From sequence record SRR2962707_3740: DNA of 62,912 nucleotides. The stretch is one strand, 5' to 3'. Numbering within the stretch: position 1 is the first letter of the stretch; every line of letters begins with the position of its first letter. A program made the position numbers and the translations under genes. The notes beneath the pieces were generated by a model. It was not told where the DNA came from and did not search any database. It saw nothing but the letters and a program-made list of their open reading frames with translations. This document shows, in pieces, positions 10,828-43,353 of this stretch.

Positions 10828-10831
10828 TGGA

Positions 10832-26368: not shown

Positions 26369-28468
26369 TTAGAAACCGCTTTCGCGCAGGAGAATTGCGA
26401 TCAGGTGTTTGGTACTGTCGATCAGCAAGCTGCGTTGCTGTCCGTCGATTTGCAGATGGCCGATCATTTCGTGGGGATCGCTAGGCACGGCGTCTAGTTG
26501 GACGCGGATTTCAAACCATGCCGCTTTGGGAGAAAGCCCGTCTTTTTCAGTTGCTGTGGCAATGGGGCCACCATGGGTGGATGCCAGCAACGGATGCGAC
26601 AGGCTGCGTGCGCGGGTGCTGCCGATTGCGATCAGGTGACCGGGGATCGGGGTGATTTTGCCGTCAGGGTAAAACAAGACCCGGTTTCCAACTGACAGGC
26701 GGTCGATTTCATCGGCATGGACATAGCCATCGACCTGCCAGGATGTCGGATCCACCAGAATGCCCAAGGGTTCTTTGTCACCAACCCACTGTCCGGGTTT
26801 CATTTTATGATCAACATCAAGCCACTGACCATCGAAAGGTGCGCGTAAAGTCAGTCGGGCGATTTCGGCCTGTGTGGCACTTATTTCGCGAAACTGGACA
26901 GCGAGACGTTGTTCAATCACGCTTTTTTGCGAAAGCCCCATCGGGTCGGCCATCATGCCGCCAAGCCGTGCCTTATAGCTGGTGATGCTGGCTTCGTTAT
27001 TGCGCATTCTAAGATGAAGATCGGGATCATCAAGTTGCAACAACACATCCCCGGATGTTGCCCAACCTGATGTTTTGAGTTCCGAAAGCTGGGCGGGGAA
27101 CGGGGCAAAGACTTTGAGCTGCCGTTCGGCGCGCAACACGCCGTTCCCGTGAATTTGGCTGTGCCATGGAATTGCCGCCAGAATCAAAATGCCCAGAAAA
27201 ATCGCGCCAAAAATCATCCGCCGCCGGACCGAGACAAATTTGCGATTTGCCCACCAGTGTTTAAGCTCGCGCATCACCGGCAACAGGATGAACCAGCAAA
27301 TTTCGACAATGAACAGAAAGATGCCAAGCACCTTGAAGAACAGCAGATAGACCGCAACTGCGATCCCGAGAAACAGGATGAACCGATAGGCCCATGTCAT
27401 GAAGGCAAAGACAGTTAGCAGGCGTCGTTGGTCTTTGGGGAACGGTTCGGGCCAGTCTTCATCAAGGCCAAGCACGCTTCTACGCATGGCTACACGCGCA
27501 ATGGCCGACGCACGTTCATGCAGATTGGGAAAATCAAGAATGTCAGACAGGATGAAATAGCCGTCAAAGCGCATGAACGGGCTGACATTCAAGGCCAGCG
27601 ACAGCACCCAGCTTGTGGTTGCCAGATATAAAAGCGCGTTGCGGGTCGCCCCGTCTTCACAGATCGCCCAACCAAATGTGGCCAGTCCGGCAAGGGCGAG
27701 TTCGGTCAGAATACCGGCACTTGAAATGGCAAGACGCTGCTTGGGGGAACGCAATTTCCATGTTTCGCTGGTGTCGGTATAGAGCATCGGCCACATCACG
27801 ACGAAGGCCACACCCATATGGGCGACGCGCAAACCAAATCGGGTGGCGACAAGGGCATGGCCAAGCTCATGCAGGGTCTTGGCGACAATCAAGGCGATGG
27901 CAAAACTGACGATCCCGGCACCGGAAAAGGATTCCACCACGGCATGGGTGAAGCTGTCCCATTGTTGGGAGACCATAACAATGCCGGTCAGACTGATGAA
28001 CAGGATCACGAGTGCTGTTAATGGATGGAAGATCCAGCCAACAAGGCCGAGCAATCCGGTCAGGTGCTTTTGCGGGCGGACCAGCGGCAGTCGAAAAAAC
28101 AGATAATGGTGCAGCCACCAGCGCCATTCCATCCAGCCGTTTTCAGTACTTTTTTGTCCAAGAGCATCGGTCTCGGTCGCGGTTGGCCGCAAAAGATGAT
28201 GGTTTTTGAGAAACTGGACAAAGGCGACGACTTGATCAATGTCGGGCTTAAGGGCCGTGCTTTTGCTGACAAGGTCATGGATCTGGCGCGGGGTTTTTCC
28301 CCACCAGCGCAAGCATTCGAATTCCAGCCAGCCGATTTTGTAAAACCGGTTAAGCACCGTATCTTGAATCATCCATGCCGGTTCGCCCGACACGCCTTGC
28401 CCGGCTTCGCAAAGGCGAAGATCCTCGCGAAGCGGTCGGGGCGTTTGATCGGCATCATCCTGCATCAC
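26369..28468 (-). CDS. Peptidase M50 (site-2 protease) fused to a C-terminal HlyD-like membrane-fusion domain
   Basis: HELGH zinc motif, NVSPFMRFDG (NxxPxxxxDG), several TM helices, then lipoyl/coiled-coil MFP region (LTLRAPFDG). Confidence 0.9.
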   Translation of the reverse strand: MMQDDADQTPRPLREDLRLCEAGQGVSGEPAWMIQDTVLNRFYKIGWLEFECLRWWGKTPRQIHDLVSKSTALKPDIDQVVAFVQFLKNHHLLRPTATETDALGQKSTENGWMEWRWWLHHYLFFRLPLVRPQKHLTGLLGLVGWIFHPLTALVILFISLTGIVMVSQQWDSFTHAVVESFSGAGIVSFAIALIVAKTLHELGHALVATRFGLRVAHMGVAFVVMWPMLYTDTSETWKLRSPKQRLAISSAGILTELALAGLATFGWAICEDGATRNALLYLATTSWVLSLALNVSPFMRFDGYFILSDILDFPNLHERASAIARVAMRRSVLGLDEDWPEPFPKDQRRLLTVFAFMTWAYRFILFLGIAVAVYLLFFKVLGIFLFIVEICWFILLPVMRELKHWWANRKFVSVRRRMIFGAIFLGILILAAIPWHSQIHGNGVLRAERQLKVFAPFPAQLSELKTSGWATSGDVLLQLDDPDLHLRMRNNEASITSYKARLGGMMADPMGLSQKSVIEQRLAVQFREISATQAEIARLTLRAPFDGQWLDVDHKMKPGQWVGDKEPLGILVDPTSWQVDGYVHADEIDRLSVGNRVLFYPDGKITPIPGHLIAIGSTRARSLSHPLLASTHGGPIATATEKDGLSPKAAWFEIRVQLDAVPSDPHEMIGHLQIDGQQRSLLIDSTKHLIAILLRESGF

Positions 28469-29829
28469 AGGCCACTCCAGGCACGCAAGGTCGCAAGCGG
28501 GCGGCGCAGCAGGTAATAGCCCAGCGGAACGCGGTCGCCATAAAGTTTGGCCGTGCCATGCAGGCCAAGGCGGATATGTTCCGGACGATTTTCGATATTG
28601 GCCAGCAGTCGATAGGACACAATGCCATCATTGTTCGGCCGGGCCTGATAGCTGGTTTCAAGGATTTTGCCGCGCACCGGATCAAGCGGATAGGCTGTTA
28701 AAAACAGGGTAACGTCCGCGCCGACATCAAGTGTTATGGCATCCGCAACAGAAAGTTCAATCCGCATGGCGGGTTGATCGGGGTTAGCCAGTTGCAAGAT
28801 GCGTTCACCCGTTGCGACCGGTTTACCGATCCAGTCATTGGGATCTGTAAAGACCGCAACACCGTCGGCAGGGGCCTCGATCCGGGTACGATTAAGCTGG
28901 GCAAGAACAGCAGCAAGTTCAACACGGCGTTGCTGGACGCGCCCGCTTAACACGGTAAGCTCCCCCTTGCTTTGCGGGTTGTTAAAGGCACCCTGACTTG
29001 CTGCTTGTAATTCGGCCTCGGCGACGGCGACTTCCTGTGTCAGCACATCGGCCTTATTACGCAGCGTGGTTTGATCAAGGGTGAACAACAGCTCGCCCTT
29101 GGTGACCTGCTGATTAGGACGGACAGAGATTGCATCAATCACACCATTCAGCGGTGCGGTTATTATCTGCGTATCGCGCGAGACAATTTCCGCCGGGGCC
29201 AGCGCACTTTGCCGGACAGGAATAAACAGCAATGCTGCGACAACAATCGCGCCAATCACCGCTGCCCGCCGCGATGGACGCCAGCGCCGTTTTTTGGCCC
29301 CGCCACTAAGCTGATGCCAGCAATAACCCCATGTCCGGAAGACACCGCCAAGATGTTCAAGAAGTCCTTCGGGTACGCCTGTTTCAAGCTGGAAAATAAT
29401 AAAGCCGAGCCGCTCGCCACTGGGGCGTTGGAATGGCACAACCAAAAGTCCGGCTGCCCACCATTCCGACCATCCTTCTGCGATCTCAGTCGGTGGATCG
29501 GCCTTTTCGCGGTCAATCCAGACCGGGGAACCGGTTTGGGACTCTTTTGGTGCGGTCTTGTCCAGTTGATCCGCGACCCAGCGGCTGGCCTGTTTGAGCC
29601 AGACCAGATAAGGGGAATCTTCGGCAGGCTTGGCCAGACCGGAAATGCAGAGAAGTTCCGGATGTCGACCAGTTTGAGTAAACACAAGCGCTTGTCGAAA
29701 TGGAAGGAGACTATAAAGATCATTGGCCATCGAAAAGGACAGCGCATTGAGGGTCTCGGCCCCCATCGCGCGATCACGAAGTGCAATCAATGTCGTAAGT
29801 ATCTGGGCCGGGGGGAATGCATTAGCCAT
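28465..29829 (-). CDS. HlyD-family periplasmic adaptor with an extra N-terminal cytoplasmic (GAF-like?) domain
   Basis: TM ~190-205, ITAPLNGVI..V.PNQ.V.KGELL, IEAPADG, GLHGTAK; about 180 extra N-terminal residues. Confidence 0.85.
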   Translation of the reverse strand: MANAFPPAQILTTLIALRDRAMGAETLNALSFSMANDLYSLLPFRQALVFTQTGRHPELLCISGLAKPAEDSPYLVWLKQASRWVADQLDKTAPKESQTGSPVWIDREKADPPTEIAEGWSEWWAAGLLVVPFQRPSGERLGFIIFQLETGVPEGLLEHLGGVFRTWGYCWHQLSGGAKKRRWRPSRRAAVIGAIVVAALLFIPVRQSALAPAEIVSRDTQIITAPLNGVIDAISVRPNQQVTKGELLFTLDQTTLRNKADVLTQEVAVAEAELQAASQGAFNNPQSKGELTVLSGRVQQRRVELAAVLAQLNRTRIEAPADGVAVFTDPNDWIGKPVATGERILQLANPDQPAMRIELSVADAITLDVGADVTLFLTAYPLDPVRGKILETSYQARPNNDGIVSYRLLANIENRPEHIRLGLHGTAKLYGDRVPLGYYLLRRPLATLRAWSGL

Positions 29830-30604
29830 TGAAATTCGGGAAAGTTGCGATCCCGCTCATGCCCGGAGTCAGTTCCGGGTAAACCTGATCAAGGGTTGCT
29901 TCAAGCTCGATGCTTTGCGCGATGGCATCGATGCGGGAATTGATTGATTTGATCGTGGCGGGATAGGTTGAACCGGTTTCAAGAATATTGACAGTCAGCG
30001 CCACGCCAACCGCCAAATGGGGGAGCATCACCGAGGGCACATTCAGGCGCACTTTGAGAGGCCCGTCGCTGATGATGTCAAACAGTGGGGTTCCGGCACT
30101 GATTGTCTGATAGGAGCGGGCGTAAACCTTGGCAACCTTGCCCGAGAACGGGGCTTTAACGGTGCAATAGCTGGCTTGAACAGATGAGAGGATTTTTGCA
30201 CCTTCGGCCTTGCGGACTTCTGTTTCTGCCATGGCAACTTCAAGATCACCTGCAGCATTAAGGTCGCGCAAATCTTCGCGTGCCGAAAGGCTTTGACGGG
30301 CCATTTGTAATTCGGCGTCGGCCACGCGTGCACGTGCGGTTGCTTCGCGACAATCAAACTGTGCGAGGTTAGTGCCTTCTTCAATCGGCTGACCAAGATC
30401 GACCGAGATTTTCTCAAGCGTTCCGGCCATCTTGCTTGAAAGGGTCGTTTCGGTATCGGCAGCCAGAAGGATGCGTATTGCCGCGCTCGAGGACATCTGT
30501 GATGTCGAGTAGTCTTGGTCCTGGGCCACAGCACTGCTTATTGGCCCGGCGATCAGCGCGGGCGTAAAAGTCATCGCAAAGATCAGATTACGAATTCGTA
30601 TCAA
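29822..30604 (-). CDS. RND/HlyD-type periplasmic adaptor (membrane fusion protein) with signal peptide
   Basis: LSSKMAG..V.LGQ, VKAPFSG, LTPGMSG; probable TTG start at 30604 with GGAG RBS (the ORF-track extension overlaps tolC). Confidence 0.85.
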   Translation of the reverse strand: MIRIRNLIFAMTFTPALIAGPISSAVAQDQDYSTSQMSSSAAIRILLAADTETTLSSKMAGTLEKISVDLGQPIEEGTNLAQFDCREATARARVADAELQMARQSLSAREDLRDLNAAGDLEVAMAETEVRKAEGAKILSSVQASYCTVKAPFSGKVAKVYARSYQTISAGTPLFDIISDGPLKVRLNVPSVMLPHLAVGVALTVNILETGSTYPATIKSINSRIDAIAQSIELEATLDQVYPELTPGMSGIATFPNFNG

Positions 30605-32132
30605 CCGTGTACTCCGCCGCGAATTGACTGAAATTCTCACGTTCTTGTTTGCGCAACGTCTCTTCAATGGCGCTGGCAAGGGTGCTGATATCATAGCCGT
30701 CGATCTGTTCTGGAAGAACATCAAGACCAATAGAGTTATACAAACGGCCCCAAGCGGCCTGTGTCCGGGAATAGGACGCTTCACGTTGATAACGTGACAG
30801 AAGGTAGCGGCCTTCGGCGCGAATGACTTCAAGTTCGGAGCCAAGCGCACTGCTGCTTTGAGCCCGCGCATAACGCAGCAATTCACGGTCTACGCGCAGG
30901 CTTTCCTGCGTGAACAGTAAATCTTGCCGGGCCAGATGATAGCGTAACGCCCCGACCCGCACCTGTGTCAGGATCGCCATTGAAAGTGCCATACGCCGCG
31001 CGTCATCGGTTTTTGCCTGTGATTCTTCTGCGCGTTGCAGGGATGGCAATTGCGTTAATCGCAACAGATTAAGCGAAACTTCAAGCCCCGTACTCGCCCA
31101 AGCCTGATTGTAGAGATACTTATTGGAATCAAATTCATACCCGGCACTGACCGAAACATTTGGCCAGAGTTCAGCTTTGGCAATCGCAAGATCATTCTGG
31201 TTCACGCGTTTGCGGTACCATTCTTCCATGATCTCGGGTCGGTTTTTCAGGGACAGCTGTTCAAGATTGGCAATGTTGCCTGTCAGTGGAACCAGAGTTG
31301 GTTCCTTGCTGTCGGCCAAGGTCAGTTTTGTCCGTGGTGGCAAGGACATCAGGGCTGCCAACTCGGCGCGCGCAAATTCAAGATCTTCGCGGCGTGTGGT
31401 TAGCAGATTAAGCGAGTCAAGCAAGGCGCGCTGATATGCCAATGCTTGTTGACGGTCCATCAATCCGCGCTCTTCAGCTGCACGGGCGGCGTGAAGGGCC
31501 TTGTCCGTACGCAAGATCAGGGCGTTCACCTCGGGCAATAGACGCTGCGCGCCAAGCGCACGCCAATAGGCATTTCGAACGTCCTGCAAGACATTCTGGG
31601 CAACGCGCCGACGGCGTTCTTCGCTCATCAGAATCTGATCAAGTTTCTGCTGGTTGCGGTAATAGGCAACACCAAAATCAAGCAGGCTCCATGTCAGGTT
31701 AAGACCGGCAAGTTTGCGATAGCGTTCCTGCGAGGTTGATGCGCGCAGACTTTCTTCGCGGTCTTCAATCCCGATGGAGGTTCCACCTGAATCGTTGCTT
31801 CGTCCGGAATACCCCGCCGATGCCACCAGACGTGGCAGCATTTCATGCGCCGAGACATCCTGAAGGTCTGATGCAAGGGCGCTTTCCATCAGTTTCAACC
31901 GATAATCAAGATTGTATTTCAGCGCCCGTGCGACGGCCTCGTAAAACGTGATCGGGCGGGTGATCGGTTCCTGATCCCGATACATAAGGGCCCGATCCTC
32001 TGCAATTCGCTGGATATGCTGTTCTTTTGTATAGGGTTGGGGCGTATCAAATGGTGTTGTGGAACACGCGCCCAAAAACAGGGAGGTGGTAACGATGAGA
32101 CCAAACGTCGCGAACGCAGTTCTTTTGGGCAT
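30588..32132 (-). CDS. TolC-family outer-membrane channel (lipoprotein)
   Basis: Lipobox LFLGAC; two OEP repeats (ARALKYNLD...LPRL; NRPE...LWP). Confidence 0.9.
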   Translation of the reverse strand: MPKRTAFATFGLIVTTSLFLGACSTTPFDTPQPYTKEQHIQRIAEDRALMYRDQEPITRPITFYEAVARALKYNLDYRLKLMESALASDLQDVSAHEMLPRLVASAGYSGRSNDSGGTSIGIEDREESLRASTSQERYRKLAGLNLTWSLLDFGVAYYRNQQKLDQILMSEERRRRVAQNVLQDVRNAYWRALGAQRLLPEVNALILRTDKALHAARAAEERGLMDRQQALAYQRALLDSLNLLTTRREDLEFARAELAALMSLPPRTKLTLADSKEPTLVPLTGNIANLEQLSLKNRPEIMEEWYRKRVNQNDLAIAKAELWPNVSVSAGYEFDSNKYLYNQAWASTGLEVSLNLLRLTQLPSLQRAEESQAKTDDARRMALSMAILTQVRVGALRYHLARQDLLFTQESLRVDRELLRYARAQSSSALGSELEVIRAEGRYLLSRYQREASYSRTQAAWGRLYNSIGLDVLPEQIDGYDISTLASAIEETLRKQERENFSQFAAEYTVDTNS

Positions 32133-32143
32133 GCGGAATCCTC

Positions 32144-35100
32144 TTAGGCACTTGAGTCGGGTGAAACGGGCGCATTTGGTGCCGTGGGTATGGTTGGAAT
32201 TGCGGTTGGGGGAAGTTGTTGCCCCGCCTGTTGCAGCTGGGCGGTAAAGTTGCTGGCTGATTTCGGGGGCGCGGTATCAATCGCGGCGGTGGTGAGGCCA
32301 CCATCATTGGTCAATCCATTTGAGAACGGCGCAAACAGCGACGGGTCACTCAGCAACCCGTCGGCATTCAGATCTACACGACCTTGCCGTCCGACGAAAA
32401 CGGCAAGGTCAAGGCTGCTTTCAAACTCGCTGCTTCCGACACTGCCGCCAACAAACTGGCCGGTAATGTCGCCAAGTCCTGATCCGATAGACTGACTGCG
32501 AATGAAGGCCGGCAGACCGAGGAGAATATCGGCACCATTCGTTTGCGAATTAACCGCTTCGTTGACAGATGAATTGATCTGAACTGTCGGCGTGACGAAA
32601 ACTGCGGGTGTCGGATCACCAAGCGGCGGGGGTGGGGGTTGAGTGACAACAAAGTCACCGGGCTGATTTCCCCCGCGGAGGCCATTGCCTTCTGGTGCCG
32701 GAACAAACGGGGCCGCAATATCAAGATTGATCGTCAGGTTTGCCTGATCGGTCGCCCCCCAGTCATCAGATAGCGTATAGGTAAATTCATCCTTCAGGAC
32801 CGTTCCCAGCCCGGCCGCAGCAAGGACTTCGGAATTACGCAGGTCAATTGCGTAGCTGTATGAACCATCGGCATTGAGGGTCAGGGTACCGTATTTCCCC
32901 TGAATGGATGTGCCGAGCGTGCCTTCGGTGCCTGTACCATCTTCGGCACCGGTGCGAATGGCGATGACTTCAAGGCTGTTTACATCGTCAGTGTCGGTAT
33001 CATTGGGGATGACGTTGCCGGTTGCGTGTGGCGCCTGAGTCTGATCGCTGGCGGTATTGGTATCATCAACGGCGACCGGTGCGTCATTGCGACCACGAAT
33101 GATGACGGTAAGCTGTGCAATATCGGTCTGTCCGCCATCGTCAACCACCTGATAGGTGAATATCTCGGTTTTACTACCCTGTGCGGGCAGGTTGATCAGA
33201 TCGGTATTGGTTGAATCCACCACATAGCGATACGTACCATCCGCGCCGATGGTCAGCGTGCCATAGGTGCCGACAAGTTCTGTGCCATCATCTTTGCTGG
33301 TGTTCGATGTAACGGCATCAAGCGCACCCCCGGCACTTTCAGAGCCCGTCCGTGCGCCATTGACATATTTGGAGTCACCGGAATCGACATCGGTGTCATT
33401 GGTCAGAACATTGCCTTCGGGGTTTTTTGCGGTGTTCTCCGCATTTTCCGCAACGGCATAAGCAAAGTTATTGACCGCAACAGGGGCATCCCAGGCACCG
33501 TTGATCGTGATGGCAATTTCGGCAAGGTCGGTTGCACCGCTGCCGTCAGATAGTCGATAGGTAAAGCTTTCTGACAGGCTATCACCAGCCTTAAGCGCCT
33601 GAACGGATGCAAGGCTATTGTTGACTGCATAGGTGAAGGTACCATTGGCCGCGATTGTCAGCGTGCCATAGGTTCCGGTGACAGTTCGGCTGCCTGAAAC
33701 CGACAGGATTGAACCACTGGCACTTTCACTACCGGTTCGAATACCTGTCACACTTTTTGTGTCACTGCTGTCGACATCGGTATCGTTGGTCAGGACATTT
33801 CCAGTCGGATCGACGCCCGCAGACCCGTTGTTGGTGCCGCCGGCTTCGGTTGCCGTTGCTGTATCATTTACGGCCACCGGAGCATCATTCGCGCCGCGGA
33901 TTGTAACTGTCAGTGTTGCGGTACTGGTGGCACCGGCAAGATCCCGTGTCGTGTAAGTGAACGTCTCGGTCAGTGTTTGAGTGGAGCTTCGCAAGGCCTG
34001 AACGGCAGCATTGCTGTTATCGACAACATAGCTATAGCTGCCGCTGCTGGTTAATGTCAGCGTGCCATAGGAACCCGCCAAGCCGCTTCCGACTGTGCCA
34101 ATTGTCGTGCCCTGGCGAACGGCACTGACCGACAGGCTTTCGCCGTTGGCATCGACATCGCTATCGTTGGTCAGGACATTTCCGGTTGGATTGGTGCCCG
34201 CGGTTCCATTGTTTGTGCCACCGGCTTCCACCGCAATGGCTGTGTCATTGCTTGCAGTCGGGGTGTCGTTTGCGCCCTGAATGGTGATGGTTATGGCGGC
34301 GTTGTCGCTCGCACCGGCCTTGTCACTGACGGTATAGGTGAAAGTATCACTCAGTGTATTACCACTGTTGCGCAGTGCCTGAACGGTGGCATTCGAGTTA
34401 TCAAGACGGTAGCTGTAACTGCCATCTTCATTGACCGTAAGCCAGCCATAGGTTCCCCGCAATTCAGACCCCACGGTGCCCGATGTGCCACTTGCAGCTT
34501 CGGCACCTGTGCGAATGGCAGACACTTCCTTGGTCTCTCCATTTGCGGTGCTGTCGACATCTGTATCATTGGTCAGGACATTGCCCGATGGATCGGTGCC
34601 CGGACTGTTATTGCTTTCACCACCCGCTTCGACGGCTGTGGCACTATCATCAACTGCAACCGGGGCATCATTTTGCCCGCGAATGACAATGACGATTTCT
34701 GCCGTATCCTGCAGACCACCACCGTCCTCGATCGTGTAGGTGAACCGTTCCGTTACGGTGTTCGTTGTATTGCGTAACGCTTCAACCGTGGTGTTGGTAT
34801 TATCGACAACGTAGCTGTAAGTGCCGTCGGAATTCAGGGTCAGGCTGCCATAAGTGCCGGTAAGTGCGACGCCAATTGTACCTGATGTGCCACCACCACC
34901 CGATGGGCCCGTTCGGATTGCAACGACGGTTAAAGGATCACCATCCGGGTCGACATCGCGGCTGGTGACATCGCCAGTCGGATTTGAGCCCGCTGTTGCA
35001 TTGTTAACGCCACCGGATTCCTGGGCAATCGCGAAAGCATCCTGCGCAACAGGATCGTCATTCGCACCATAAACCGTGATTGTAATTGTTGCCGTGGTTG

Positions 35101-38100
35101 TCAGGCCGTTTGTATCGGTTATTTCATAGGTGAAAACTTCATCCTCGGGAGAGCCGCTGGGGAGTGCGATCACATCAACATTTTCACTGTCGACATTATA
35201 ACGTGCCGTGCCATCGGAACTTATATAAAGCGTCCCATACTCACCTGTAACAGCAACTTCTGTTGCGCCACTGGAAATGCTGGTAAGGGCACCCGCTGCG
35301 TTCAGGTTTTCAGAATTGATCCCGGAAACCCGAAGATTGGTGTTCGGCTGGTCAGCACTATCAACGTCTGAATCGGCCCCGTCTCCGGTGTCATTGGTAA
35401 TCACGTTGCCAGACGGGTTGCTTTCAGCTGCATCCGTATCGCCCAAACTGCTATTGGCAGCTTGGGCGACGGCCACATTGTTCGTCGCAACCGGATTATC
35501 ATTTGCGCCATTAATCGTGATGGTCAGATTGGCAAGGTCATTCAACCCGGCCGCATCGGTGACCTGATAACTAAAGACTTCTGTTAGTGTGTCCCCGGCG
35601 GACAACGCCTGAACATCTGTATTGCTGTTATCAATCACATAGGAATAATCACCGTCCGAGTTTATGGTCAACGTACCATACGTTCCCGTGATTTCTGTGT
35701 CGTTCGAAGGGTTAATGTCTACGGCTGTCAGTGCGCCGCTCTCATCCTTTGGAACGGCACGAACCCCGCTTACGGTTTTGGTTTCGCCATTTGCAACGCT
35801 GTCGACATCGGTATCATTTGTCAGGACATTTCCTGTGGCATCAGAACCCGGGGTTCCGTTGGAAACGCCACCGGCCTCGGTTGCGCTACCGGTATCATCA
35901 ACGCCAACCGGGGCATCGTTGGCGCCTGAAATGGTCACCGTAAAGGTTGCGGTATCCGTGGCATCGGCAGTGTCCGACACAGTGTATGAGAAAACCTCGC
36001 TCAGCGTATTGCCGCTAAGGCGCAAGGCCTGCACAGCGGCATTGTCATTATCGACGACATATTGATAGCGACCGTCACTTTGAACCACCAGACTGCCATA
36101 TAGCCCGGGGATGGTTGCTGATCCACCCGATGAAATCGTGTAGGTATCCAGTGTGCCGTCCAATGTGACATCAGTGACGCGCAGTTCGTCATCATTGGTT
36201 GCGATATCAACATCGGTATCATTGGTAAGCAGGTTGCCGCGTGGATCAACCCCCGGTGTCAGGTTATCATTGCCTCCGGCTTCGGTCGCGGCGGCGGTAT
36301 CATCATTCGCTGATGGCAGGTCGTTGACGGCATTGACGGTGATTTGCAGGCTGTCGGTGTCGGTCAGGGCATCGTCACTGGTTTCGCCCGGTGTGCCGTC
36401 ATCATCTGCATCGCCGTAATTGCCGCGGTCGGTGGTGGTGACGGTCAGTGTGTCTGTTCCGTTATAGTTGGATGTGCCTTGATAGGTGACATTGTTGGCC
36501 AGTGTTGCATTGATATCGGCTTTTGTCCCTCGCAGCGTCAGGGTCGCGCTGCCGTTACTGCCTGATACAATTGTTGCACCCGAAAGGTTTACCGTCACTG
36601 TTCCTTGCAGAACAGTAAGGGTGACTTGAAGTTCGGAAACACCGCCGCGATCAGAATCAATATCATCAATTGAGATACCCGAAATCGCGATCGAGGTATC
36701 TTCGTTGACCGTCTGATTGCCCGGTAAGGTATTTACCGGCGCGTCATTCTGTTCGACATAACCGGCATCTGCCGTATCCGTTCCGCCCTCTCCCAGCGTG
36801 ATATCGACCTGTCCAAGGGTTCCGCCTGTACCATCCGTATCAATACGAACTTCAAGATCACCAACCGGTTGTGCGTATGTAACGGTATCTGTCGGGGTAT
36901 CGATCCGGTAATTTCCAGATGGCAAGACACCAAAACTGTATTCGCCATTGGCATCGGTTGAGGTGGTAAAGACCAGATTATCCGCCGTGGTCGTAAGGTC
37001 GCCATCGGCACCGGCCCATGTCAGGGTGACGGTCAATCCGTCCAACCCGGTCGCTCCACCATCGGGTGTGGTGTTTGCGCCATCTGCAGCTGCCGTTGAC
37101 GTGTCGTTCCATAACGTACCGCTGATGACACCAAGCCCGGCACCTTCGGTCAGCACATATGTATTGGCCCCAACGCCCGAGCCGGTTCGTTCGCCATCAC
37201 TGTCACCATCCGTACCAACACTGTTGCCGCCCCAGCTTGTGAAATCTTCGGGCAGGCTGCTCCAGGTCAGGCTGGCGTCGGTTGAGGCGATAGCGATGCC
37301 ATTGGGCACATCCACCGAATAGGTGACAACGACTGAATCATCGACATCAATCTGGTCAAAATCAACCGATATGCCGCCGGTCTCACTGAAAGTAATGCCC
37401 GATGGCAGGTTACCCGCAGTATATGTGGTGTCATTGATCTTGATGCTGATCAGGTCGTAATTGGTCCCGCCGGTGAAATCGTCGGTCACGTTGGTGTTAA
37501 AGGCCGGTGCACCGCCATCCTGTGTGAAGCTCAGTTCGACAGTGGCCGTGCCAGTGCTGCCGGACGGGTTCGGATCGAAATCGGTGACGGTTTTATCAAC
37601 GCTGTTGAAGCTTGGTTCGACTACTGTTTCGGTAAATGTATCGCTTTGTGCGCCGTTCGTGCCGTTGCGAATTTCCTGAACTTGCATGCCCAGTGCAGCA
37701 CCAGCCGAGCTTGCCGCCACATTGGCAACCCTGACATTGAATTCCAGAACAATGCCTTCACGATCACTGTCGACTTCGCTGTTGCTAATATTGCCAAAAT
37801 CGAAAGTCACAACCTGTCCGGCGATACTTACCTGCGCTGGATTAAGTACGCCAGTTGGCGCGCCATCAGCCAGATTGGGGTCAATTGACTGAGCTTCTGC
37901 GCTGTCCTGATTTCCAGAAATCGCAAGCGTCCCTCCGGTAATCAGGGGAGCGTCGGTCGTCAGGCCACTATCTGAAATAAACCCGACCAGCATCGCGTTG
38001 TCGTTTTCATCAATGAATTCAAGACCGTTATCGAGTGTAACTTCCAACTGATAATTGGGGTTCGAGCCTTCGGGTAACAAAACGACAACCCGGTAACGGA

Positions 38101-41100
38101 TGATTTCGCCAACAGCGACCGTTTCGTTGGAGGCATCGGTTGGATCCGGGGCTGCTGTATCGGGCAACCCGCCAACCCGGGAAACCAGAATAGCCTGTGC
38201 CACCGGGAATGTCAGGGTATCACTGCGCCGGTAATCATTTAACGTGCCACCACCCAGTGTACCGTCCTCACCGGTACGTTCACCGGTACCCGCCGATGCG
38301 CCATCCATGCTGGTCCAGCGGACCTCGGCGGTGTTGCTGAAATTGGCTTCGGAGGCGGCGGTATCATTGACCGTGCCGGTGACCCGAATAACGATGCTGC
38401 CGCCTTTGGTGATATCGACGTTGGCTCCGGCAATTGTTTGTAAGACACCTGAACCAACATCGATTTCAAAATCGGCACCGCCGTTGTTGGTGGCCCCGCC
38501 GCTATAGGTAATACCGGCGATGGTCAGGCCATCAAGCTCGGTCGGAAGGGTGCTGGCGAGACTGATGTCAAAGGCATCAAAGTCCGTGTCGCTGTTGCCA
38601 TTGGTGATGGTGATGGTGAATTCAACATCGTCGCCTTCGTCAAAGCCCAGAGTGGTGGACGTGACAACCGTCTGATCAATGGTCAGGGTTGGTTCGCGCA
38701 AGGTGATCGTTGGTTTACCATCGGAAAGTGCAACCGTGCGGTTTTGTGGGGTTGATCCATTGGCGGTATCCCCGTCTGGATCGGAATAGGTAAGCTCGGC
38801 ATTGTTCTGACGGGTTGTCCCCGCCTGATTGGCTGCGACGTTTTCTGCAACCAGCCGCACGCGAATGACAAAGCTGTTATTCCCGGTGTCATTGTCAGCC
38901 GTGGTGGTCGACGCACTAAAGGAAAAGCGGCCATCCACCCCGTCATCACCAAGCGATCCGGACACTGCGGCAAGGCCGCTAATGGTTACGGTTCCGGCAA
39001 AGTCATTTGAAAGCGCACCACTTTCAGATGTCAGCGTTATCAGTTGATATCCTGATCCGTTGAAGCTGGTATCAAGGCTCATACCCGATGGGACCAGATC
39101 ATCAATCTGCAGGGACTGCGTTGTGCCTTCGGGCAGGGTGACGACGATGTCATAAAGCATACTCTCACCCACCACAAGGTCCGAGCCCGTGGTGTGAGAT
39201 GCACTGGAATCACTGTTATCAAGGCTGCCATCAGCAAAGTTTTTGCGAATTTCCGGTGCGGCGACCTGTTGATCGGCAGTATCGGTCAGGTCCGTCGATG
39301 TGAAATCTGTGCCGCCATCAACGCTGGCATAATTGCCAAGTGTTGCTGTGGATTGCAGCGTGGTACTGGCATCAATCGCATCGTTGACTTCAACGTCATA
39401 GGTAATAACGACAAGATTGGACCCGTTGGTATCGGCAGATGTACCGTCCCGCCCGGCCAGAAGGGTTGCGACCCCGCCATTATCAAGGAAGGAAATCGTG
39501 TTGCCAGAAACACTGTAATCGGTATCAAGAACCAACAGCGTCCCGTCGCCGCGATATACTTGAAGATTGGCATCTGTAAGGGTGCCATTGGCAAAGCTCA
39601 GTCCGGTTGGAAGGGTGATGCTGGTGGCAACATCAAATGCACCACCTCCACCGGTATTTTCAATCGCGGTGGCAAGACGCAAAAGGTCGCCGCCATCAAT
39701 GTCGGTGACACTGCCGTCAATCGCAGTGATATCGTTTACATTGCCGGAAAATGGTGTACCGGTCGTGCCCGGTGCGCTCCATGTGCCAGTCGTGCCGCTG
39801 ACGGTGCCGTTGCTGGATGAAACCACGCCATGGCTCATGGTCAGGACAGGTTCTGCGATTGAAGATATCGGCGCAACATCCGAAGACACAAGTGTTTGCG
39901 CGGTAAGCGTGGTGGATTGTGACGATTGCGCCAGAACATTGATGGAGCGTTGATCGGCATAGGGCTGATCGCCGACCGTCATGGTGAACTGAACTTCAAT
40001 CGTGCTGCCATCAGTCGAAGATGTGTCAAAATCGCCGAAATCAAATTCGATGGCATTGCCGGCTGCACTTGTAACGGTCGGTGCAGATCCTGCGTTTGTA
40101 TTGTCCCCGCCAAAATTCCATGTGTCGGTACCCGATCCCATGGACCAAGTGGTGCCGGAGACACCAACATCAAATAACGGCAGCGGCAAATACGCGGTCA
40201 GTACGAAGTCTTCGTAATCACTGGTCAGAAGATCGTAATTCAGCGTAAAGGTAACAACGTCACCGGGGTTAAGCTCAACATTTGAGGGCGGGGTGCTGCC
40301 ATTCACATCTGATATCGTAATATCGATGCTGCGATGTGCCAGTGTGTGGCTGGTGGAACTGTCATCGCTTTCATCACTGCCCGTCAGGTTCAGCGCATCC
40401 TGAAGGATGGTGGCCGTGACCGAGGCACTGTTGCTGATGGCATCCCCTTCATTGATGGCATTTTTCGGCGTCGAGCCCGATGTATAATTCTGGCTCAGAA
40501 CCGCACTGTAGCTGATCACGCCAAGGGTGGCGCCCACCTGTGTGTCATCAAAGGCCAGATCCCCGATCAGGGCCCCCAAAGTCAGGCCGGAATTGCGCAG
40601 GGCTTCTGCAATATCAAGCGTTACCGTTGTGACACCGTTGGAGTCAGTTGATTGGTTTGCAGTACCGGTTAAATCGATGGTGTGAGACGCACCATTCATG
40701 GTGTAGGTGAATGTTGCCGGCGGAGACCCGACCAACGTTTGGCCATCACTTAGCGTATCCGTAATGACGAAGCTGCCATTTTCAAAGAAGTCTTCCCCGA
40801 AGGCAAAATAATCCGAGATCGCCAGATCGAGTGTATAGCGCAGTGTATCGCCCGGTGTCAGACCACTTTGACCATTATCAATGGCAACGGTTGCCGATTT
40901 TTCGACAGTGATCGACTTGGCAACAAAGCTGGTACTTGATCCGGTGCCAGTGAATTCGATGTTTTCGGCATCATCTTCAAGATCACGCTCATCAAGCGGC
41001 ACCCAGTTGCCCGATCCGGTCGGGCCATCAACCGTGATGGTAACATCATCACCTGTCGTGGGATTAAGCACGAGATCACCGTCGCTATCGGCTTCGGGAA

Positions 41101-42706
41101 CATAGAATTCAACAACCGTGTCGGTTGCCGCCGAAAGGGTGTCGTATTTGACAGTGAATTCCTTGATGAAAATGCTGTCGCTGCTGATCGCCTGATCGAT
41201 CAGTGTACTATTGGTCAGGACCGTGCCGTTATAAAGCGTGATCGATGTGATGGTGCCGCCACTTCCTGCTGTGATCGCGGTAACCTGTATCTGATCTGGC
41301 AGTGGTTGGGTGACGACAACATTGGTCAAGGTTTGCCCGATGGCGGGTGTCGCCGTCAGGGTCAGGCTGTGGACATAGTTCGGACCGGTGGTGACTTCCC
41401 CTTCGGGTGCATTGACCGACTGGCTGATCGAAATGATTGTCGGATGGACGACAAAATCATGTGTAGATGCTTCAATCAAAGACGGATCGGTGGTCGGGTT
41501 ATCAAGCGAATCATTGCCAAATTCAAACCCGCCACGCACCTTGATCGTCAAATCGGGGCTGCCGTTTGATTGTGCCGTATCGGCAAGATTGCTGAGTGCT
41601 GCAGTAATGTCGACCGATATGGTCGGCTGATCTTGCGACACGCTGGCGAACGGCAGTTGAACCACCACCAACTGATCACCGGCCTGAAGGCCATATGTCG
41701 CAGCATTGATCACCACCGCATTGCCACTGCTGTCTTTGGCTATCGGGTGGGTGGCATTGCCGTCCGCATCAAAGGTAATGGTATGGGACGTCAGGGTCTG
41801 ATCAAGATATTTGGCCGAAATAAAGGTGACACCATCATCGGCCTCGGCTCCTGCGCCATCTTTGCCTGTCGCCGGAAAGAACAGATCAAGATAGGGCGCG
41901 AACCCGACTTGGGAGCTGTTATTTGCAAAATCGACCGTAAAGGTGAACTGATCCCCAAGAAGGACGTCGCTGCCTGATCCGACCGAAACCAGCGGATCGG
42001 CGTCGACAAGCAAACCGTCGTAGTTTGCCATGACTTCCGCGTTCAGCGCGTTGGCCTTATCGATAACGCCAACCTGGGTTTCAAGAACCCAGTCGCCGCC
42101 AAGGGCACTGGCCCCGGTTTCATCATCGGATGCGGCTACATCCGCCCCCGTGATGTCGGCCAACCTGGAAACGAGTACCTGTCCGGCCGACCCGGCACCA
42201 ATGTTACAGCCATAGAGTTGAATATCGGCATCTTCGGAAAGATGATCGCGCCAGTCTGAAAAGCTGTCTGACAGGGCATCGATGGTTTGCGCAGTGATCT
42301 GGCTGCTGCCCAGAACAAATTGTCCGGATGCGCCATGCGAAAGGATCTGGATGGACTCAACTTCACCAATCTCGTCAAGGGCGGCAGAAATGGCATCCAC
42401 ACCGTTTGTGCCACTGTCAACGATCAGAACGCTGACATTCGCACCAAGGTTTGCTGTGAGTTCGGAAAGATTATCGACCCGGCCATCAATAACCAAAAGA
42501 TGGGAGCCCGATGAAGGTGTCTCTGTGGTGGTGGGTTCGGGATGTGTTTGATCAGCGGCATCGCTGTGATCGCTGCTGCCGTCTTGATGGCTGGTATCCT
42601 GATGTTCTACAGCGACCGCAGCCGCCCCATCAAACAGAATCCTCGGTTCAAGCGCCAGAGTGTGACTGACTGGCCTGAACGGATTCCGCACAGTGTCGTC
42701 TCGCAT
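32144..42706 (-). CDS. Giant (3520 aa) repetitive surface protein/adhesin: LEPR-XLL leader, DUF4347, DUF11/isopeptide-like Ig domains, SdrD-B-like domain, cadherin-like domain, ~9 VCBS repeats, Pro-rich tail
   Basis: LALEPRILFDG; ILSHGASG...LYGCNIG...ASDDETG...GGDWVLE (DUF4347); PGDTLRYTL, VGESMLYDIVVTLPEG, VGEIIRYRVVVLLPEG; repeated NDAPVA..D...GNVLTNDTDVD...YGTLT...DG.YSY. Confidence 0.92.
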   Translation of the reverse strand: MRDDTVRNPFRPVSHTLALEPRILFDGAAAVAVEHQDTSHQDGSSDHSDAADQTHPEPTTTETPSSGSHLLVIDGRVDNLSELTANLGANVSVLIVDSGTNGVDAISAALDEIGEVESIQILSHGASGQFVLGSSQITAQTIDALSDSFSDWRDHLSEDADIQLYGCNIGAGSAGQVLVSRLADITGADVAASDDETGASALGGDWVLETQVGVIDKANALNAEVMANYDGLLVDADPLVSVGSGSDVLLGDQFTFTVDFANNSSQVGFAPYLDLFFPATGKDGAGAEADDGVTFISAKYLDQTLTSHTITFDADGNATHPIAKDSSGNAVVINAATYGLQAGDQLVVVQLPFASVSQDQPTISVDITAALSNLADTAQSNGSPDLTIKVRGGFEFGNDSLDNPTTDPSLIEASTHDFVVHPTIISISQSVNAPEGEVTTGPNYVHSLTLTATPAIGQTLTNVVVTQPLPDQIQVTAITAGSGGTITSITLYNGTVLTNSTLIDQAISSDSIFIKEFTVKYDTLSAATDTVVEFYVPEADSDGDLVLNPTTGDDVTITVDGPTGSGNWVPLDERDLEDDAENIEFTGTGSSTSFVAKSITVEKSATVAIDNGQSGLTPGDTLRYTLDLAISDYFAFGEDFFENGSFVITDTLSDGQTLVGSPPATFTYTMNGASHTIDLTGTANQSTDSNGVTTVTLDIAEALRNSGLTLGALIGDLAFDDTQVGATLGVISYSAVLSQNYTSGSTPKNAINEGDAISNSASVTATILQDALNLTGSDESDDSSTSHTLAHRSIDITISDVNGSTPPSNVELNPGDVVTFTLNYDLLTSDYEDFVLTAYLPLPLFDVGVSGTTWSMGSGTDTWNFGGDNTNAGSAPTVTSAAGNAIEFDFGDFDTSSTDGSTIEVQFTMTVGDQPYADQRSINVLAQSSQSTTLTAQTLVSSDVAPISSIAEPVLTMSHGVVSSSNGTVSGTTGTWSAPGTTGTPFSGNVNDITAIDGSVTDIDGGDLLRLATAIENTGGGGAFDVATSITLPTGLSFANGTLTDANLQVYRGDGTLLVLDTDYSVSGNTISFLDNGGVATLLAGRDGTSADTNGSNLVVITYDVEVNDAIDASTTLQSTATLGNYASVDGGTDFTSTDLTDTADQQVAAPEIRKNFADGSLDNSDSSASHTTGSDLVVGESMLYDIVVTLPEGTTQSLQIDDLVPSGMSLDTSFNGSGYQLITLTSESGALSNDFAGTVTISGLAAVSGSLGDDGVDGRFSFSASTTTADNDTGNNSFVIRVRLVAENVAANQAGTTRQNNAELTYSDPDGDTANGSTPQNRTVALSDGKPTITLREPTLTIDQTVVTSTTLGFDEGDDVEFTITITNGNSDTDFDAFDISLASTLPTELDGLTIAGITYSGGATNNGGADFEIDVGSGVLQTIAGANVDITKGGSIVIRVTGTVNDTAASEANFSNTAEVRWTSMDGASAGTGERTGEDGTLGGGTLNDYRRSDTLTFPVAQAILVSRVGGLPDTAAPDPTDASNETVAVGEIIRYRVVVLLPEGSNPNYQLEVTLDNGLEFIDENDNAMLVGFISDSGLTTDAPLITGGTLAISGNQDSAEAQSIDPNLADGAPTGVLNPAQVSIAGQVVTFDFGNISNSEVDSDREGIVLEFNVRVANVAASSAGAALGMQVQEIRNGTNGAQSDTFTETVVEPSFNSVDKTVTDFDPNPSGSTGTATVELSFTQDGGAPAFNTNVTDDFTGGTNYDLISIKINDTTYTAGNLPSGITFSETGGISVDFDQIDVDDSVVVTYSVDVPNGIAIASTDASLTWSSLPEDFTSWGGNSVGTDGDSDGERTGSGVGANTYVLTEGAGLGVISGTLWNDTSTAAADGANTTPDGGATGLDGLTVTLTWAGADGDLTTTADNLVFTTSTDANGEYSFGVLPSGNYRIDTPTDTVTYAQPVGDLEVRIDTDGTGGTLGQVDITLGEGGTDTADAGYVEQNDAPVNTLPGNQTVNEDTSIAISGISIDDIDSDRGGVSELQVTLTVLQGTVTVNLSGATIVSGSNGSATLTLRGTKADINATLANNVTYQGTSNYNGTDTLTVTTTDRGNYGDADDDGTPGETSDDALTDTDSLQITVNAVNDLPSANDDTAAATEAGGNDNLTPGVDPRGNLLTNDTDVDIATNDDELRVTDVTLDGTLDTYTISSGGSATIPGLYGSLVVQSDGRYQYVVDNDNAAVQALRLSGNTLSEVFSYTVSDTADATDTATFTVTISGANDAPVGVDDTGSATEAGGVSNGTPGSDATGNVLTNDTDVDSVANGETKTVSGVRAVPKDESGALTAVDINPSNDTEITGTYGTLTINSDGDYSYVIDNSNTDVQALSAGDTLTEVFSYQVTDAAGLNDLANLTITINGANDNPVATNNVAVAQAANSSLGDTDAAESNPSGNVITNDTGDGADSDVDSADQPNTNLRVSGINSENLNAAGALTSISSGATEVAVTGEYGTLYISSDGTARYNVDSENVDVIALPSGSPEDEVFTYEITDTNGLTTTATITITVYGANDDPVAQDAFAIAQESGGVNNATAGSNPTGDVTSRDVDPDGDPLTVVAIRTGPSGGGGTSGTIGVALTGTYGSLTLNSDGTYSYVVDNTNTTVEALRNTTNTVTERFTYTIEDGGGLQDTAEIVIVIRGQNDAPVAVDDSATAVEAGGESNNSPGTDPSGNVLTNDTDVDSTANGETKEVSAIRTGAEAASGTSGTVGSELRGTYGWLTVNEDGSYSYRLDNSNATVQALRNSGNTLSDTFTYTVSDKAGASDNAAITITIQGANDTPTASNDTAIAVEAGGTNNGTAGTNPTGNVLTNDSDVDANGESLSVSAVRQGTTIGTVGSGLAGSYGTLTLTSSGSYSYVVDNSNAAVQALRSSTQTLTETFTYTTRDLAGATSTATLTVTIRGANDAPVAVNDTATATEAGGTNNGSAGVDPTGNVLTNDTDVDSSDTKSVTGIRTGSESASGSILSVSGSRTVTGTYGTLTIAANGTFTYAVNNSLASVQALKAGDSLSESFTYRLSDGSGATDLAEIAITINGAWDAPVAVNNFAYAVAENAENTAKNPEGNVLTNDTDVDSGDSKYVNGARTGSESAGGALDAVTSNTSKDDGTELVGTYGTLTIGADGTYRYVVDSTNTDLINLPAQGSKTEIFTYQVVDDGGQTDIAQLTVIIRGRNDAPVAVDDTNTASDQTQAPHATGNVIPNDTDTDDVNSLEVIAIRTGAEDGTGTEGTLGTSIQGKYGTLTLNADGSYSYAIDLRNSEVLAAAGLGTVLKDEFTYTLSDDWGATDQANLTINLDIAAPFVPAPEGNGLRGGNQPGDFVVTQPPPPPLGDPTPAVFVTPTVQINSSVNEAVNSQTNGADILLGLPAFIRSQSIGSGLGDITGQFVGGSVGSSEFESSLDLAVFVGRQGRVDLNADGLLSDPSLFAPFSNGLTNDGGLTTAAIDTAPPKSASNFTAQLQQAGQQLPPTAIPTIPTAPNAPVSPDSSA
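32720..36325 (-). repeat. About nine tandem ~130-aa VCBS/cadherin-like repeats in the giant protein
   Basis: Repeat starts NDLP, NDAP, NDNP, NDDP, NDAP, NDTP, NDAP, WDAP, NDAP; diverged at DNA level. Confidence 0.85.
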
Positions 42707-42956
42707 TCCAACCGAACCCTTAGGGTGATTATCATTATATTGATTTCAATTATCGTCTCATTTTTCACCTGCTGCGACAATAAGATATTCGCGTTTAAAT
42801 GCGTATTAGTTTGTTCTTATTCGCTTTTTGGGCGCACTGACTATAGATGTTGTGTTGTGCGTACAAAGGGATACAGCCCCGGTCAGGGGACTCGCATGAG
42901 GCTTTTGAAAAAAATCACCCACAGATTTCCGGTGCGTTTTTTGTGTCTTTCGGGTG

Positions 42957-43120
42957 TCAGGACACCACGCTTGGCAACCAGTTGGCCCGCGACGGCCGCA
43001 GCCAGACAACGATGATGCAAAACAGCTGCAGAGCAATAAACGGGATAACGCCCCGAAAGATCCGGCCGCTGGTGATTTCCGATGGCGCGGTACTGCGCAG
43101 GTAAAACAGCGAGAACCAAA
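42957..43120 (-). pseudogene. C-terminal remnant of a TRAP large permease (dctM)
   Basis: Translates FSLFYLRSTAPSEITSGRIFRGVIPFIALQLFCIIVVWLRPSRANWLPSVVS*, a typical DctM C-terminus; no start or upstream homology. Confidence 0.75.
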
Positions 43121-43353
43121 TTGAGAGCAGATAAAGGAGCTTTCTCCGGGCCAGTCGAATGAAGCTATCTTACAACAGGAATTTTCTGCGCCCACACCTT
43201 CGGATACTTTCCTCCAACTTATGCCCAGCTTGGTATGAAACATGCTTTAATAGCATTCTATCCCCGAATTATGACAACTCAGGTGGCAATCATTCTTTAA
43301 AAAGTATGGGGAATTTGAGAGCGATGCAGCAATGCTCATATGATATGAACATT

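Follow-up and report, generated by a model that had tools for sequence, protein, structure and literature searches.

A conserved five-gene unit linking a giant LEPR-XLL protein to a TolC-family channel and an M50-HlyD fusion: a candidate export system with no linked ABC transporter

Genes and features of the locus

In this study, a five-gene unit was analysed in a 62,912-nucleotide stretch of DNA from sequence record SRR2962707_3740 (the whole of this stretch is referred to as the window). The genes encode a giant protein, a TolC-family outer-membrane factor, two HlyD-type membrane fusion proteins (MFP1 and MFP2), and a protein in which an M50 membrane protease is fused to an HlyD-type adaptor. 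An earlier, sequence-only reading of the window had proposed five coupled minus-strand genes for a 3520-aa surface protein, a TolC lipoprotein, two MFPs, and an M50-HlyD fusion; the open reading frame (ORF) list agrees with this layout (Table 1), and the Pfam and NCBIfam results agree with the identities of the products. The same reading had placed every junction at a gap of 11 bp or less or at an overlap, which was borne out except for a possible excess of 2 nt between the TolC and MFP1 genes. The giant and TolC genes are separated by 11 nt, the MFP1 and MFP2 genes overlap by 8 nt, and the MFP2 and fusion genes overlap by 4 nt. The TolC/MFP1 junction is a 13-nt gap when MFP1 begins at ATG 30574, and a 52-nt overlap when it begins at GTG 30639. 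The longest frame of MFP1 in the ORF list is 29822-30886 (354 aa), and its signal peptide was better from the GTG 30639 start.

The giant is acidic (isoelectric point 4.05), contains a single cysteine (Cys), and has no GGxGxD repeats. From its N-terminus, it consists of a LEPR-XLL tag, a variable linker, a DUF4347 domain, an Ig-like region, eight or nine cadherin-like/VCBS repeats, and a conserved C-terminal block; no hydrophobic signal or transmembrane (TM) segment was predicted in it. When scored alone, residues 18-33 passed the NCBIfam model NF012209 (LEPR-XLL) with 18.8 bits against a cut-off of 17. When 24 orthologues were compared, residues 16-30 were the most conserved 15-residue window of the entire protein (0.939, compared with a mean of 0.661), and the linker at residues 34-68 was its least conserved part (0.383). 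Moreover, LE.R was present inside the first 80 residues of all 121 giants compared (that of the window and its 120 best homologues), almost all of which showed [FL][RK]Pxxxx-ALEPRILFDGAAA. The tag takes variant forms in distant cassettes (LEQRFMFDAA, LEPRILLSAD, LEDRILLSAD, and LERRLMFDAA), and a wider tag motif fitted 17 of 20 giants sampled phylum-wide, as well as all six distinct alphaproteobacterial giants with a visible N-terminus, one of which was seen in two loci. In the AlphaFold2 (AF2) model, the tag and linker were disordered, the predicted local distance difference test (pLDDT) being below 50 for residues 1-64. Judged by this pattern of conservation, the LEPR-XLL tag is a candidate leader or recognition peptide. 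At the opposite end of the giant, the C-terminal block reads GQFV..DLA..GRxGRxxLxADGLLSDPSLF .. FxxQLxxA. Pfam gave nothing for this block at E values up to 10, and it is possibly a module for retention or a second signal.

The only Cys of the giant, C167, lies in an invariant LYGC motif within DUF4347, and exactly one Cys was found in 108 of 120 homologous giants. Both C167 and H124 (of an SHG motif) were invariant among the aligned giants. The AF2 model of giant residues 65-235 was good (block means 63-96), and its best match in the PDB was Tce1 of Pseudomonas aeruginosa (9qpe_G; Foldseek E 3.7e-4), with which VIA-align gave a Z of 12.6 and an rmsd of 2.9 over 146 residues. The corresponding Z was 9.0 for SAVED-CHAT, and 5.6-7.0 for legumains, GPI transamidase, Craspase CHAT, the protease domains of MARTX, TcdB, and TcdA, C11 protease, and caspases; a few Rossmann-like folds were mixed among the matches at similar Z. 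In one report, Tce1 (PA0256) is described as resembling the TcdB protease domain, with the His/Cys dyad aligned (PMC13323088), and in an earlier one PA0256 is annotated as a DUF4347 protein (PMC8262886). Because the modelled fold matches Tce1, CHAT, and the cysteine protease domains (CPDs) of toxins and carries an invariant His/Cys pair, the DUF4347 of the giants is best read as a clan-CD, CPD-like cysteine protease domain by fold. As in the clan-CD proteases Tce1, CHAT, legumain, and the CPDs of MARTX and large clostridial toxins, the His/Cys pair of DUF4347 is on the expected strands; unlike in those proteins, its position is close to the N-terminus of a giant that resembles an adhesin, following a putative secretion tag. 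DUF4347 genes were also seen in open frames of 9509, 11649, and 14920 aa (examples: G315:C1:2731072, G327:C29:23633, and G068:C18:12644); therefore, the presumed substrates include some of the largest bacterial proteins.

The M50-HlyD fusion passed Peptidase_M50 (PF02163) with 37.9 bits against a cut-off of 27.2, and its AF2 model had a mean pLDDT of 94.1 and a predicted template modelling score (pTM) of 0.79. It had been claimed that the HELGH and NxxPxxxxDG zinc motifs of this protein are intact, and this is the case: the third-ligand motif N294..P297..D302-G303 follows downstream of HELGH, and H200, E201, H204, N294, P297, D302, and G303 were invariant in 150 of 150 aligned family members (32-92% identity), as were E256, D309, and R362. 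The family was collected by phmmer from 1.84 billion representatives of 50%-identity clusters, among which 11813 matched at E≤1e-3 and 2959 at E≤1e-30; the best 150 were mostly full-length proteins of about 700 aa, with a few shorter fragments. The closest relative, from Thalassospira xianhensis, shares 92% identity with the fusion. Two NCBIfam models gave matches below their cut-offs, namely NF041824 (daptide HExxH protease; residues 39-397, 1.1e-45, 156.4 bits, cut-off 300) and NF058609 (YydH/LiaK; 2.6e-9, 37.1 bits, cut-off 225). By these scores, the fusion is related to, yet not a member of, the HExxH proteases of daptides and epipeptides, which belong to the ribosomally synthesized and post-translationally modified peptides (RiPPs).

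The N-domain of the fusion was modelled as strands 18-22, 31-36, and 41-45 followed by helices 47-54, 60-70, and 77-89. Three strands and then three helices is an element order that we take to be that of PqqD-type RiPP recognition elements (RREs). Also, the nearest named protein-atlas cluster of residues 1-135 carries PqqD (0.94, 207 of 256 features; PqqD is found on 25% of its members), and a 24%-identical plasmid homologue of the fusion bears the annotation 'PqqD family protein'. That the fusion begins with a PqqD/RRE-like domain is a lead only. Its C-terminal part matched MacA, EmrA, MexA, AcrA, and ZneB with Foldseek E values of 1e-9 to 1e-11 and contains a short two-helix hairpin (helices of about 26 residues); as modelled, it is a true periplasmic adaptor. 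When PDB sequences were searched with four queries (the profile of the fusion, the N-domains of the fusion and of MFP2, and the N-terminus of the giant), the matches were weak or irrelevant only: RseP at E 0.0074, an OB domain of the proteasome, ESCRT-III, and ribosomal S13.

The product of the TolC gene matched OEP in Pfam at 1.1e-36, its matches to TIGR01844 and TIGR01845 being below their cut-offs. A lipobox-like LGAC, noted by eye near its N-terminus, suggests that it is a probable lipoprotein. HlyD_3 was detected by Pfam in three proteins, MFP1, MFP2, and the fusion. Since about eight TM segments were predicted in the fusion and one in MFP2, the fusion is the sole polytopic membrane protein of the five, in agreement with what had been proposed. 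The N-domain of MFP2, retained in distant cassettes, gave protein-atlas leads to GAF clusters at 0.91-0.92, and Pfam gave no match for it.

Table 1. Positions, in window coordinates, of the five genes and of features within and beside them
Feature	Position	Strand	Remarks
Giant	32144-42706	minus	3520 aa ORF
N-terminal tag of giant, residues 10-33	42608-42679	minus	FRPxxxxLALEPRILFDGAAA; candidate leader/recognition peptide
DUF4347 domain, residues 70-233 of giant	42008-42499	minus	PF14252, 166.2 bits (cut-off 24.6), 6.9e-49
Conserved C-terminal block, about the last 120 residues of giant	32147-32509	minus	mean conservation 0.513
TolC-family outer-membrane factor	30588-32132	minus	514 aa; OEP match
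MFP1, short periplasmic adaptor	29822-30639	minus	start GTG 30639 or ATG 30574
MFP2	28465-29829	minus	454 aa; cytoplasmic N-domain, one TM, HlyD-type adaptor
MFP2 cytoplasmic N-domain, ~185 aa	29275-29829	minus	GAF-like by language-model features only
M50-HlyD fusion	26369-28468	minus	699 aa; N-domain, M50, and HlyD-type adaptor
PqqD/RRE-like N-domain of fusion	~28193-28429	minus	atlas lead and AF2 element order
M50 membrane protease part of fusion, ~8 TM	~27164-28036	minus	Peptidase_M50 at residues 189-265
HELGH zinc site (H200, E201, H204)	27857-27871	minus	invariant, 150/150
HlyD-type adaptor part of fusion	26372-27163	minus	HlyD_3 at residues 540-621
Sigma-70-like promoter match	42734-42761	minus	10/12; just upstream of giant ATG; weak

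Conservation, linkage, and mobility of the unit

The neighbourhood of the fusion gene was surveyed by scanning one genome per species, which yielded 297 fusion relatives; the best 80 loci were kept, and the five window proteins were compared with their ORFs by BLAST. The order GIANT-TolC-MFP1-MFP2-M50HlyD was found in 66 of the 80 loci, distributed over alpha-, beta-, and gammaproteobacteria (Thalassospira, Pseudomonas, Variovorax, Comamonas, Paraburkholderia, Caballeronia, Aeromonas, Halopseudomonas, and Steroidobacteraceae). Seven loci, all of the Pseudomonas putida group, had the order MFP1-MFP2-M50HlyD-GIANT, and TolC was located directly 3' of the giant in all five genomes of this group that were checked. 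Because TolC directly follows the giant, this order is a circular permutation of the five genes. As for the remaining loci, five end at a contig edge before the giant and two are on short contigs. More distant loci (n = 20; 30-38% identity) were taken from a phylum-wide sample and picked for having DUF4347 and the fusion on one contig. Four gene orders occurred among them, including one with a divergently transcribed giant. All five parts were detected by BLAST in 13 of these loci, and the misses, which concerned single parts, arose partly because ORF picking was crude.

The unit was also found on plasmids. Matching plasmid records numbered 57, of which 18 were from Escherichia coli; Citrobacter and Hafnia were among the others. 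In NZ_CP060066.1 (L148/L149), the annotations read Ig-like protein, TolC family protein, adaptor, HlyD, and HlyD, directly followed by the insertion sequences (IS) IS1 and IS5, and the giant begins ..FALESRQLFDGAALA, followed by DUF4347 with SHG and YGCD. At 99% identity or more, the fusion gene was present in 24 of 5426 complete E. coli genomes (21 plasmid places and 4 chromosomal ones). These surveys support a conserved unit whose five genes are kept together even where they have been rearranged or moved to plasmids; the sequence-only reading had mentioned similar cassettes in other proteobacteria. The plasmids bearing the unit include IncHI1B and other types, with IS1/IS5 copies at its boundary and five co-directional hypothetical genes upstream of the giant. 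As a separate observation, T. xianhensis has a second, 38%-identical cassette (L111, G001:C41), which stops at the edge of its contig immediately behind TolC. The same species has another DUF4347 giant (L127, at the end of G001:C13; tag ALEQRFMFDAAGA) that is cut off by the edge of a different contig; probably, the two belong together, and the repetitive gene was split by a gap in the assembly.

Co-occurrence of the fusion with LEPR-XLL/DUF4347 giants was then counted over whole genomes. Among 251 Pseudomonadota genomes, the fusion was found in 78 and DUF4347 in 82; 73 had both, 5 had the fusion only, 9 had DUF4347 only, and 164 had neither, which is far above the chance level and in line with the co-occurrence that had been anticipated (Fisher's exact test, odds ratio 266, p 1.6e-46). 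In a class-level sample of 301 genomes, the fusion was found in 23 and DUF4347 over the cut-off in 22, with 15 having both, 8 the fusion only, 7 DUF4347 only, and 271 neither (p 8.6e-15). These p values carry no correction for phylogeny and overstate independence because the genomes are related. NF012209 matched in 6 of the 301 genomes, and all six carry the fusion. In the phylum sample, in which at most four fusion candidates were scored per genome, the fusion was often multi-copy, and its copy numbers ran parallel to those of DUF4347 (3 and 3 in G055, 2 and 2 in G001). Counted by eye among the rows listed, at least 34 fusion/DUF4347 pairs were on the same contig within about 21 kb. In the first five genomes, DUF4347 was at the expected start of the giant in four.

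A class III nucleotide cyclase sensor adjoins the fusion gene in 6 of the 20 distant loci (L128, L129, L130, L136, L137, and L143). Pfam confirmed CHASE2 and cyclase domains in L129, L130, L137, and L143 and dCache and cyclase domains in L128, which additionally has a solute-binding protein (SBP)-histidine kinase; the L136 cyclase was assigned through BLAST alone. No such sensor cyclase was found in the 80 orthologous loci, in 19 alphaproteobacterial loci, or in the window. Together with the GAF-like domain of MFP2, these adjoining cyclases hint at cyclic-nucleotide gating in some clades.

Proposed export route and competing explanations

It had been claimed that none of the five proteins carries motifs of an ATP-binding cassette (ABC) transporter and that no RND pump is present, and a survey of related units for the absence of a linked ABC had been suggested. 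The observation was confirmed. GxxGxGK[ST] (Walker A) was absent from every ORF of at least 100 aa in the window, the flanks yielded no match to an RND or ABC family, and the five proteins yielded none to an ABC family. An ABC-like ORF was found in none of the 20 distant loci and near 7 of the 80 related loci, in every case on the opposite strand and at a variable distance of 1.8-10 kb downstream. In 4 of 18 alphaproteobacterial regions, ABC-ATPase-like ORFs were present and were merely 236-371 aa long. These surveys support the conclusion that no ABC is linked to the unit in a consistent way.

We propose that the unit is a self-contained, leader-guided, TolC-dependent exporter of one giant substrate that has no dedicated ABC, an explanation for which we see about an even chance. 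In such an exporter, the N-terminal LEPR-XLL tag of the giant would serve as the leader, the PqqD/RRE-like cytoplasmic domain of the fusion would bind this tag, and the adjoining inner-membrane M50 zinc protease would cut or hold it. The unfolded, acidic, almost Cys-free chain would pass via a tube of three adaptors (MFP1, MFP2, and the HlyD part of the fusion) into the unit's own TolC-family channel, and export would proceed without a dedicated ABC, RND, or MFS pump. The energy might be supplied by extracellular folding of the cadherin-like/VCBS repeats, by proton-motive force, or by translation coupling. The DUF4347 domain behind the tag would probably process the giant in cis, and the GAF-like domain of MFP2 would probably gate the machine. 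The sequence-only reading had the protease recognise, clip, and thread the giant; the PqqD/RRE-like domain that precedes the protease fits the first of these steps as a lead, and its clipping and export steps are putative. The likely role of the tag as a leader, the clan-CD protease nature of DUF4347, and the GAF-like cytoplasmic domain of MFP2 were not part of that reading.

Compared with a type I secretion system (T1SS), the unit has an HlyD-type MFP and a TolC-family factor and lacks a dedicated ABC encoded with the MFP; with regard to an uncleaved C-terminal signal, usually with RTX repeats, its giant has the conserved C-terminal block and zero GGxGxD repeats. The interpretation as an ABC-less export machine is plausible and partly supported. 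The unit resembles a T1SS in its conduit, departs from it in the missing ABC, and has a putative recognition/protease module as in RiPP-type leader processing. There is a substantial chance that the unit is a separate secretion system. The fuller proposition, that it represents a distinct and very common Gram-negative secretion system in which a LEPR-XLL leader is used, an RRE-M50-adaptor fusion replaces the ABC, and the substrate has its own clan-CD protease, is put forward tentatively, its likelihood being somewhat short of even.

Several observations weigh against leader-guided export of this kind. Site-2 protease (S2P)/M50 proteins are not known to act as protein channels. For the N-domain of the fusion, Pfam gave no match at E values up to 10, so that the PqqD assignment fails by hidden Markov model; the PqqD label comes from a language-model lead and the order of secondary-structure elements, and the Foldseek list of the fusion was filled by adaptor proteins that cover the adaptor part, not the M50 or N-domain folds. 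The pairing of fusion and DUF4347 has its exceptions in the 5 fusion-only and 9 DUF4347-only genomes among the 251. Moreover, the complete small genomes G070 and G241 have their DUF4347 gene 275 and 890 kb from the cassette, and in G003 (a Pseudomonas migulae record) DUF4347 is away from the giant start of the cassette. The sole DUF4347 match of G003 is in a frame of 687 aa near 6530332, with about 70 kb and the record origin between it and the cassette; possible reasons are a faulty assembly, a gene that is split, or one that is very long. Two of the seven ABC-like ORFs near related loci, those of L013 (640 aa) and L016 (762 aa, both measured stop to stop), are of exporter length. The conserved block at the C-terminal end of the giant could direct export with this end first, as a signal of the T1SS kind. 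Also, generic ABC exporters are present in most of the genomes checked for ABCs. When genomes were searched with the curated cut-offs of T1SS ABC families, three such families in the case of the small genomes, an unlinked T1SS-type ABC exceeded its cut-off in four of five larger genomes (LssB-type in two and PrtD-type in two others) and in two of five small cassette genomes (PrtD-type in G457 and HlyB-type in G070).

The other genomes of the same search gave a different picture. One of the five larger genomes had nothing over the LssB or PrtD cut-off, and three small genomes, G241 (a single 2.07-Mb contig), G454, and G416, exceeded none of the three cut-offs; the best scores were 373.6 bits, 384.1 bits, and no match at 1e-60, respectively, and control genomes showed similar below-cut-off matches at this threshold. 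Taken together, the surveys of linked and unlinked ABCs favour independence from an ABC, short of proof. The ABC-less machine of the sequence-only reading stood with respect to linked ABCs and was left in doubt by the unlinked ones.

The T1SS-type ABCs found in four of five larger and two of five small genomes suit an explanation in which the cassette provides conduit and processing, and an unlinked T1SS-type or other ABC would carry out inner-membrane translocation in trans. The giant, acidic, nearly Cys-free, and with BapA/LapF-like repeats, is like the T1SS adhesins in these respects, and it has a conserved C-terminal block. We nevertheless regard such an arrangement as unlikely, given that TolC and three adaptor modules remain together in the absence of an ABC in each of four gene orders, at identities as low as 21%, and on plasmids where IS elements flank them, that three of five small genomes lack an ABC over the three cut-offs, and that RTX repeats are missing; in known T1SSs, moreover, the ABC and its MFP are encoded together. 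In another explanation, which we consider rather improbable, the giant would exit C-terminus first, and the tag and folded DUF4347 would be an anchor on the RRE/M50 part, released by M50 or DUF4347 cleavage; in that case, the unit would have its own equivalent of the retention of LapA and its release by LapG. A folded N-terminal domain beside a disordered tag and linker, a helix-like FxxQLxxA motif in the conserved C-terminal block, a clan-CD protease fold within the giant, the regulatory-looking GAF-like domain on MFP2, and the sensor cyclases in 6 of 20 distant loci are all compatible with such an anchor, whereas no ABC is linked and the strongest conservation is in the N-terminal tag, not at the C-terminus. 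To our knowledge, C-terminus-first threading has been ABC-driven in every studied case.

It is very improbable that the four-gene machine handles other cargo, such as a small peptide/RiPP or a drug, and that the giant is an incidental or regulatory neighbour. This explanation draws on the daptide HExxH RiPP protease as the best NCBIfam match of the fusion (1.1e-45, below the cut-off) and on RRE-M50 proteins acting on small peptides (PMC10885120). It has to be set against the linkage and co-occurrence with DUF4347/LEPR giants across the 251 and 301 genomes, the parallel copy numbers, and the same-contig pairs, at least 34 within about 21 kb; no systematic search for small-peptide genes was made.

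Relation to known systems and flanking genes

The proposed leader-guided exporter has partial counterparts among known systems. With the T1SSs of giant adhesins (LapA with LapBCE, SiiE, and BapA) it would share one-step passage through a TolC-family channel with an HlyD-type adaptor, a giant, acidic, nearly Cys-free Ig-like/VCBS substrate that has no Sec signal and has a folded N-terminal domain, and clustered genes. Unlike in these systems, no ABC is linked, an M50 protease is found at the place of the pump, three adaptor modules are present rather than one, and the giant has a conserved N-terminal tag instead of an unconserved C-terminal signal and lacks RTX repeats. Also, in contrast to the LapA system, no LapG/LapD pair was seen in the window. 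The RiPP M50 leader peptidases (EpeP/YydH, the daptide HExxH protease, and TglG/TmoG) are, like the fusion, HExxH membrane metalloproteases, and they have a PqqD/RRE-like leader-binding domain placed in front, as the fusion putatively does. However, the fusion carries a periplasmic adaptor, teams with TolC, and scores below both family cut-offs, and its presumed substrate is a protein of 1000-15000 aa, not a short peptide. According to one review, the M50 protease EpeP is thought to cleave and also to export its peptide (PMC10885120). The peptidase-containing ABC transporters (PCATs) that act on double-glycine leaders follow the same logic, an N-terminal leader being removed by a protease of the inner-membrane exporter, which works with an MFP and TolC in Gram-negatives; they contain a C39 cysteine peptidase and ABC nucleotide-binding domains, neither of which is found in the unit.

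No description of the cassette was found in the literature covered, subscription journals being outside that coverage. In the part of an Azospirillum paper that was accessible, DUF4347 giants are listed as biofilm candidates and secretion genes go unmentioned (PMC13723633). Apparent mentions of M50 in two efflux reviews turned out to be a residue number and a DOI. As far as we know, all TolC-dependent exporters described so far include an energised transporter in the inner membrane (ABC, RND, MFS, or PET). The unit has no such transporter linked to it, yet the fusion is present in 78 of 251 Pseudomonadota genomes, about a third. The findings point to an undescribed way of exporting very large proteins. 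If this is true, giant adhesins would gain a new export route, the LEPR-XLL tag and DUF4347 would have a function, and leader recognition guided by an RRE would apply not just to small peptides but also to proteins thousands of residues long; it would also pose a sharp question on energetics. The unit can be tested directly, because E. coli plasmids and common Pseudomonas species carry the same five genes.

Around the unit, the promoter scan of the region was at chance level (12 sites compared with 13.3 expected), as was the terminator scan, and an Rfam search found no riboswitch. A 145-aa ORF just upstream of the giant (42806-43243, minus strand) has a weak LptM-like lipoprotein motif (E 3e-4, below the cut-off). 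The flanks encode TRAP (tripartite ATP-independent periplasmic) transporters, MarR, a thioesterase, GntR, PfkB, and a short-chain dehydrogenase/reductase (SDR). An error-prone polymerase cassette on the minus strand at 7525-13160 encodes a DnaE2-like Pol III alpha of 1137 aa and a Y-family protein of 538 aa that resembles ImuB; upstream of these lies another ORF, of 262 aa. Five DctM TRAP genes are distributed over the window (13870-15282, 23759-25081, 47737-49017, 53781-55088, and 60851-62173), several of them with DctP/DctQ partners, and this density of TRAP uptake genes is unusual.

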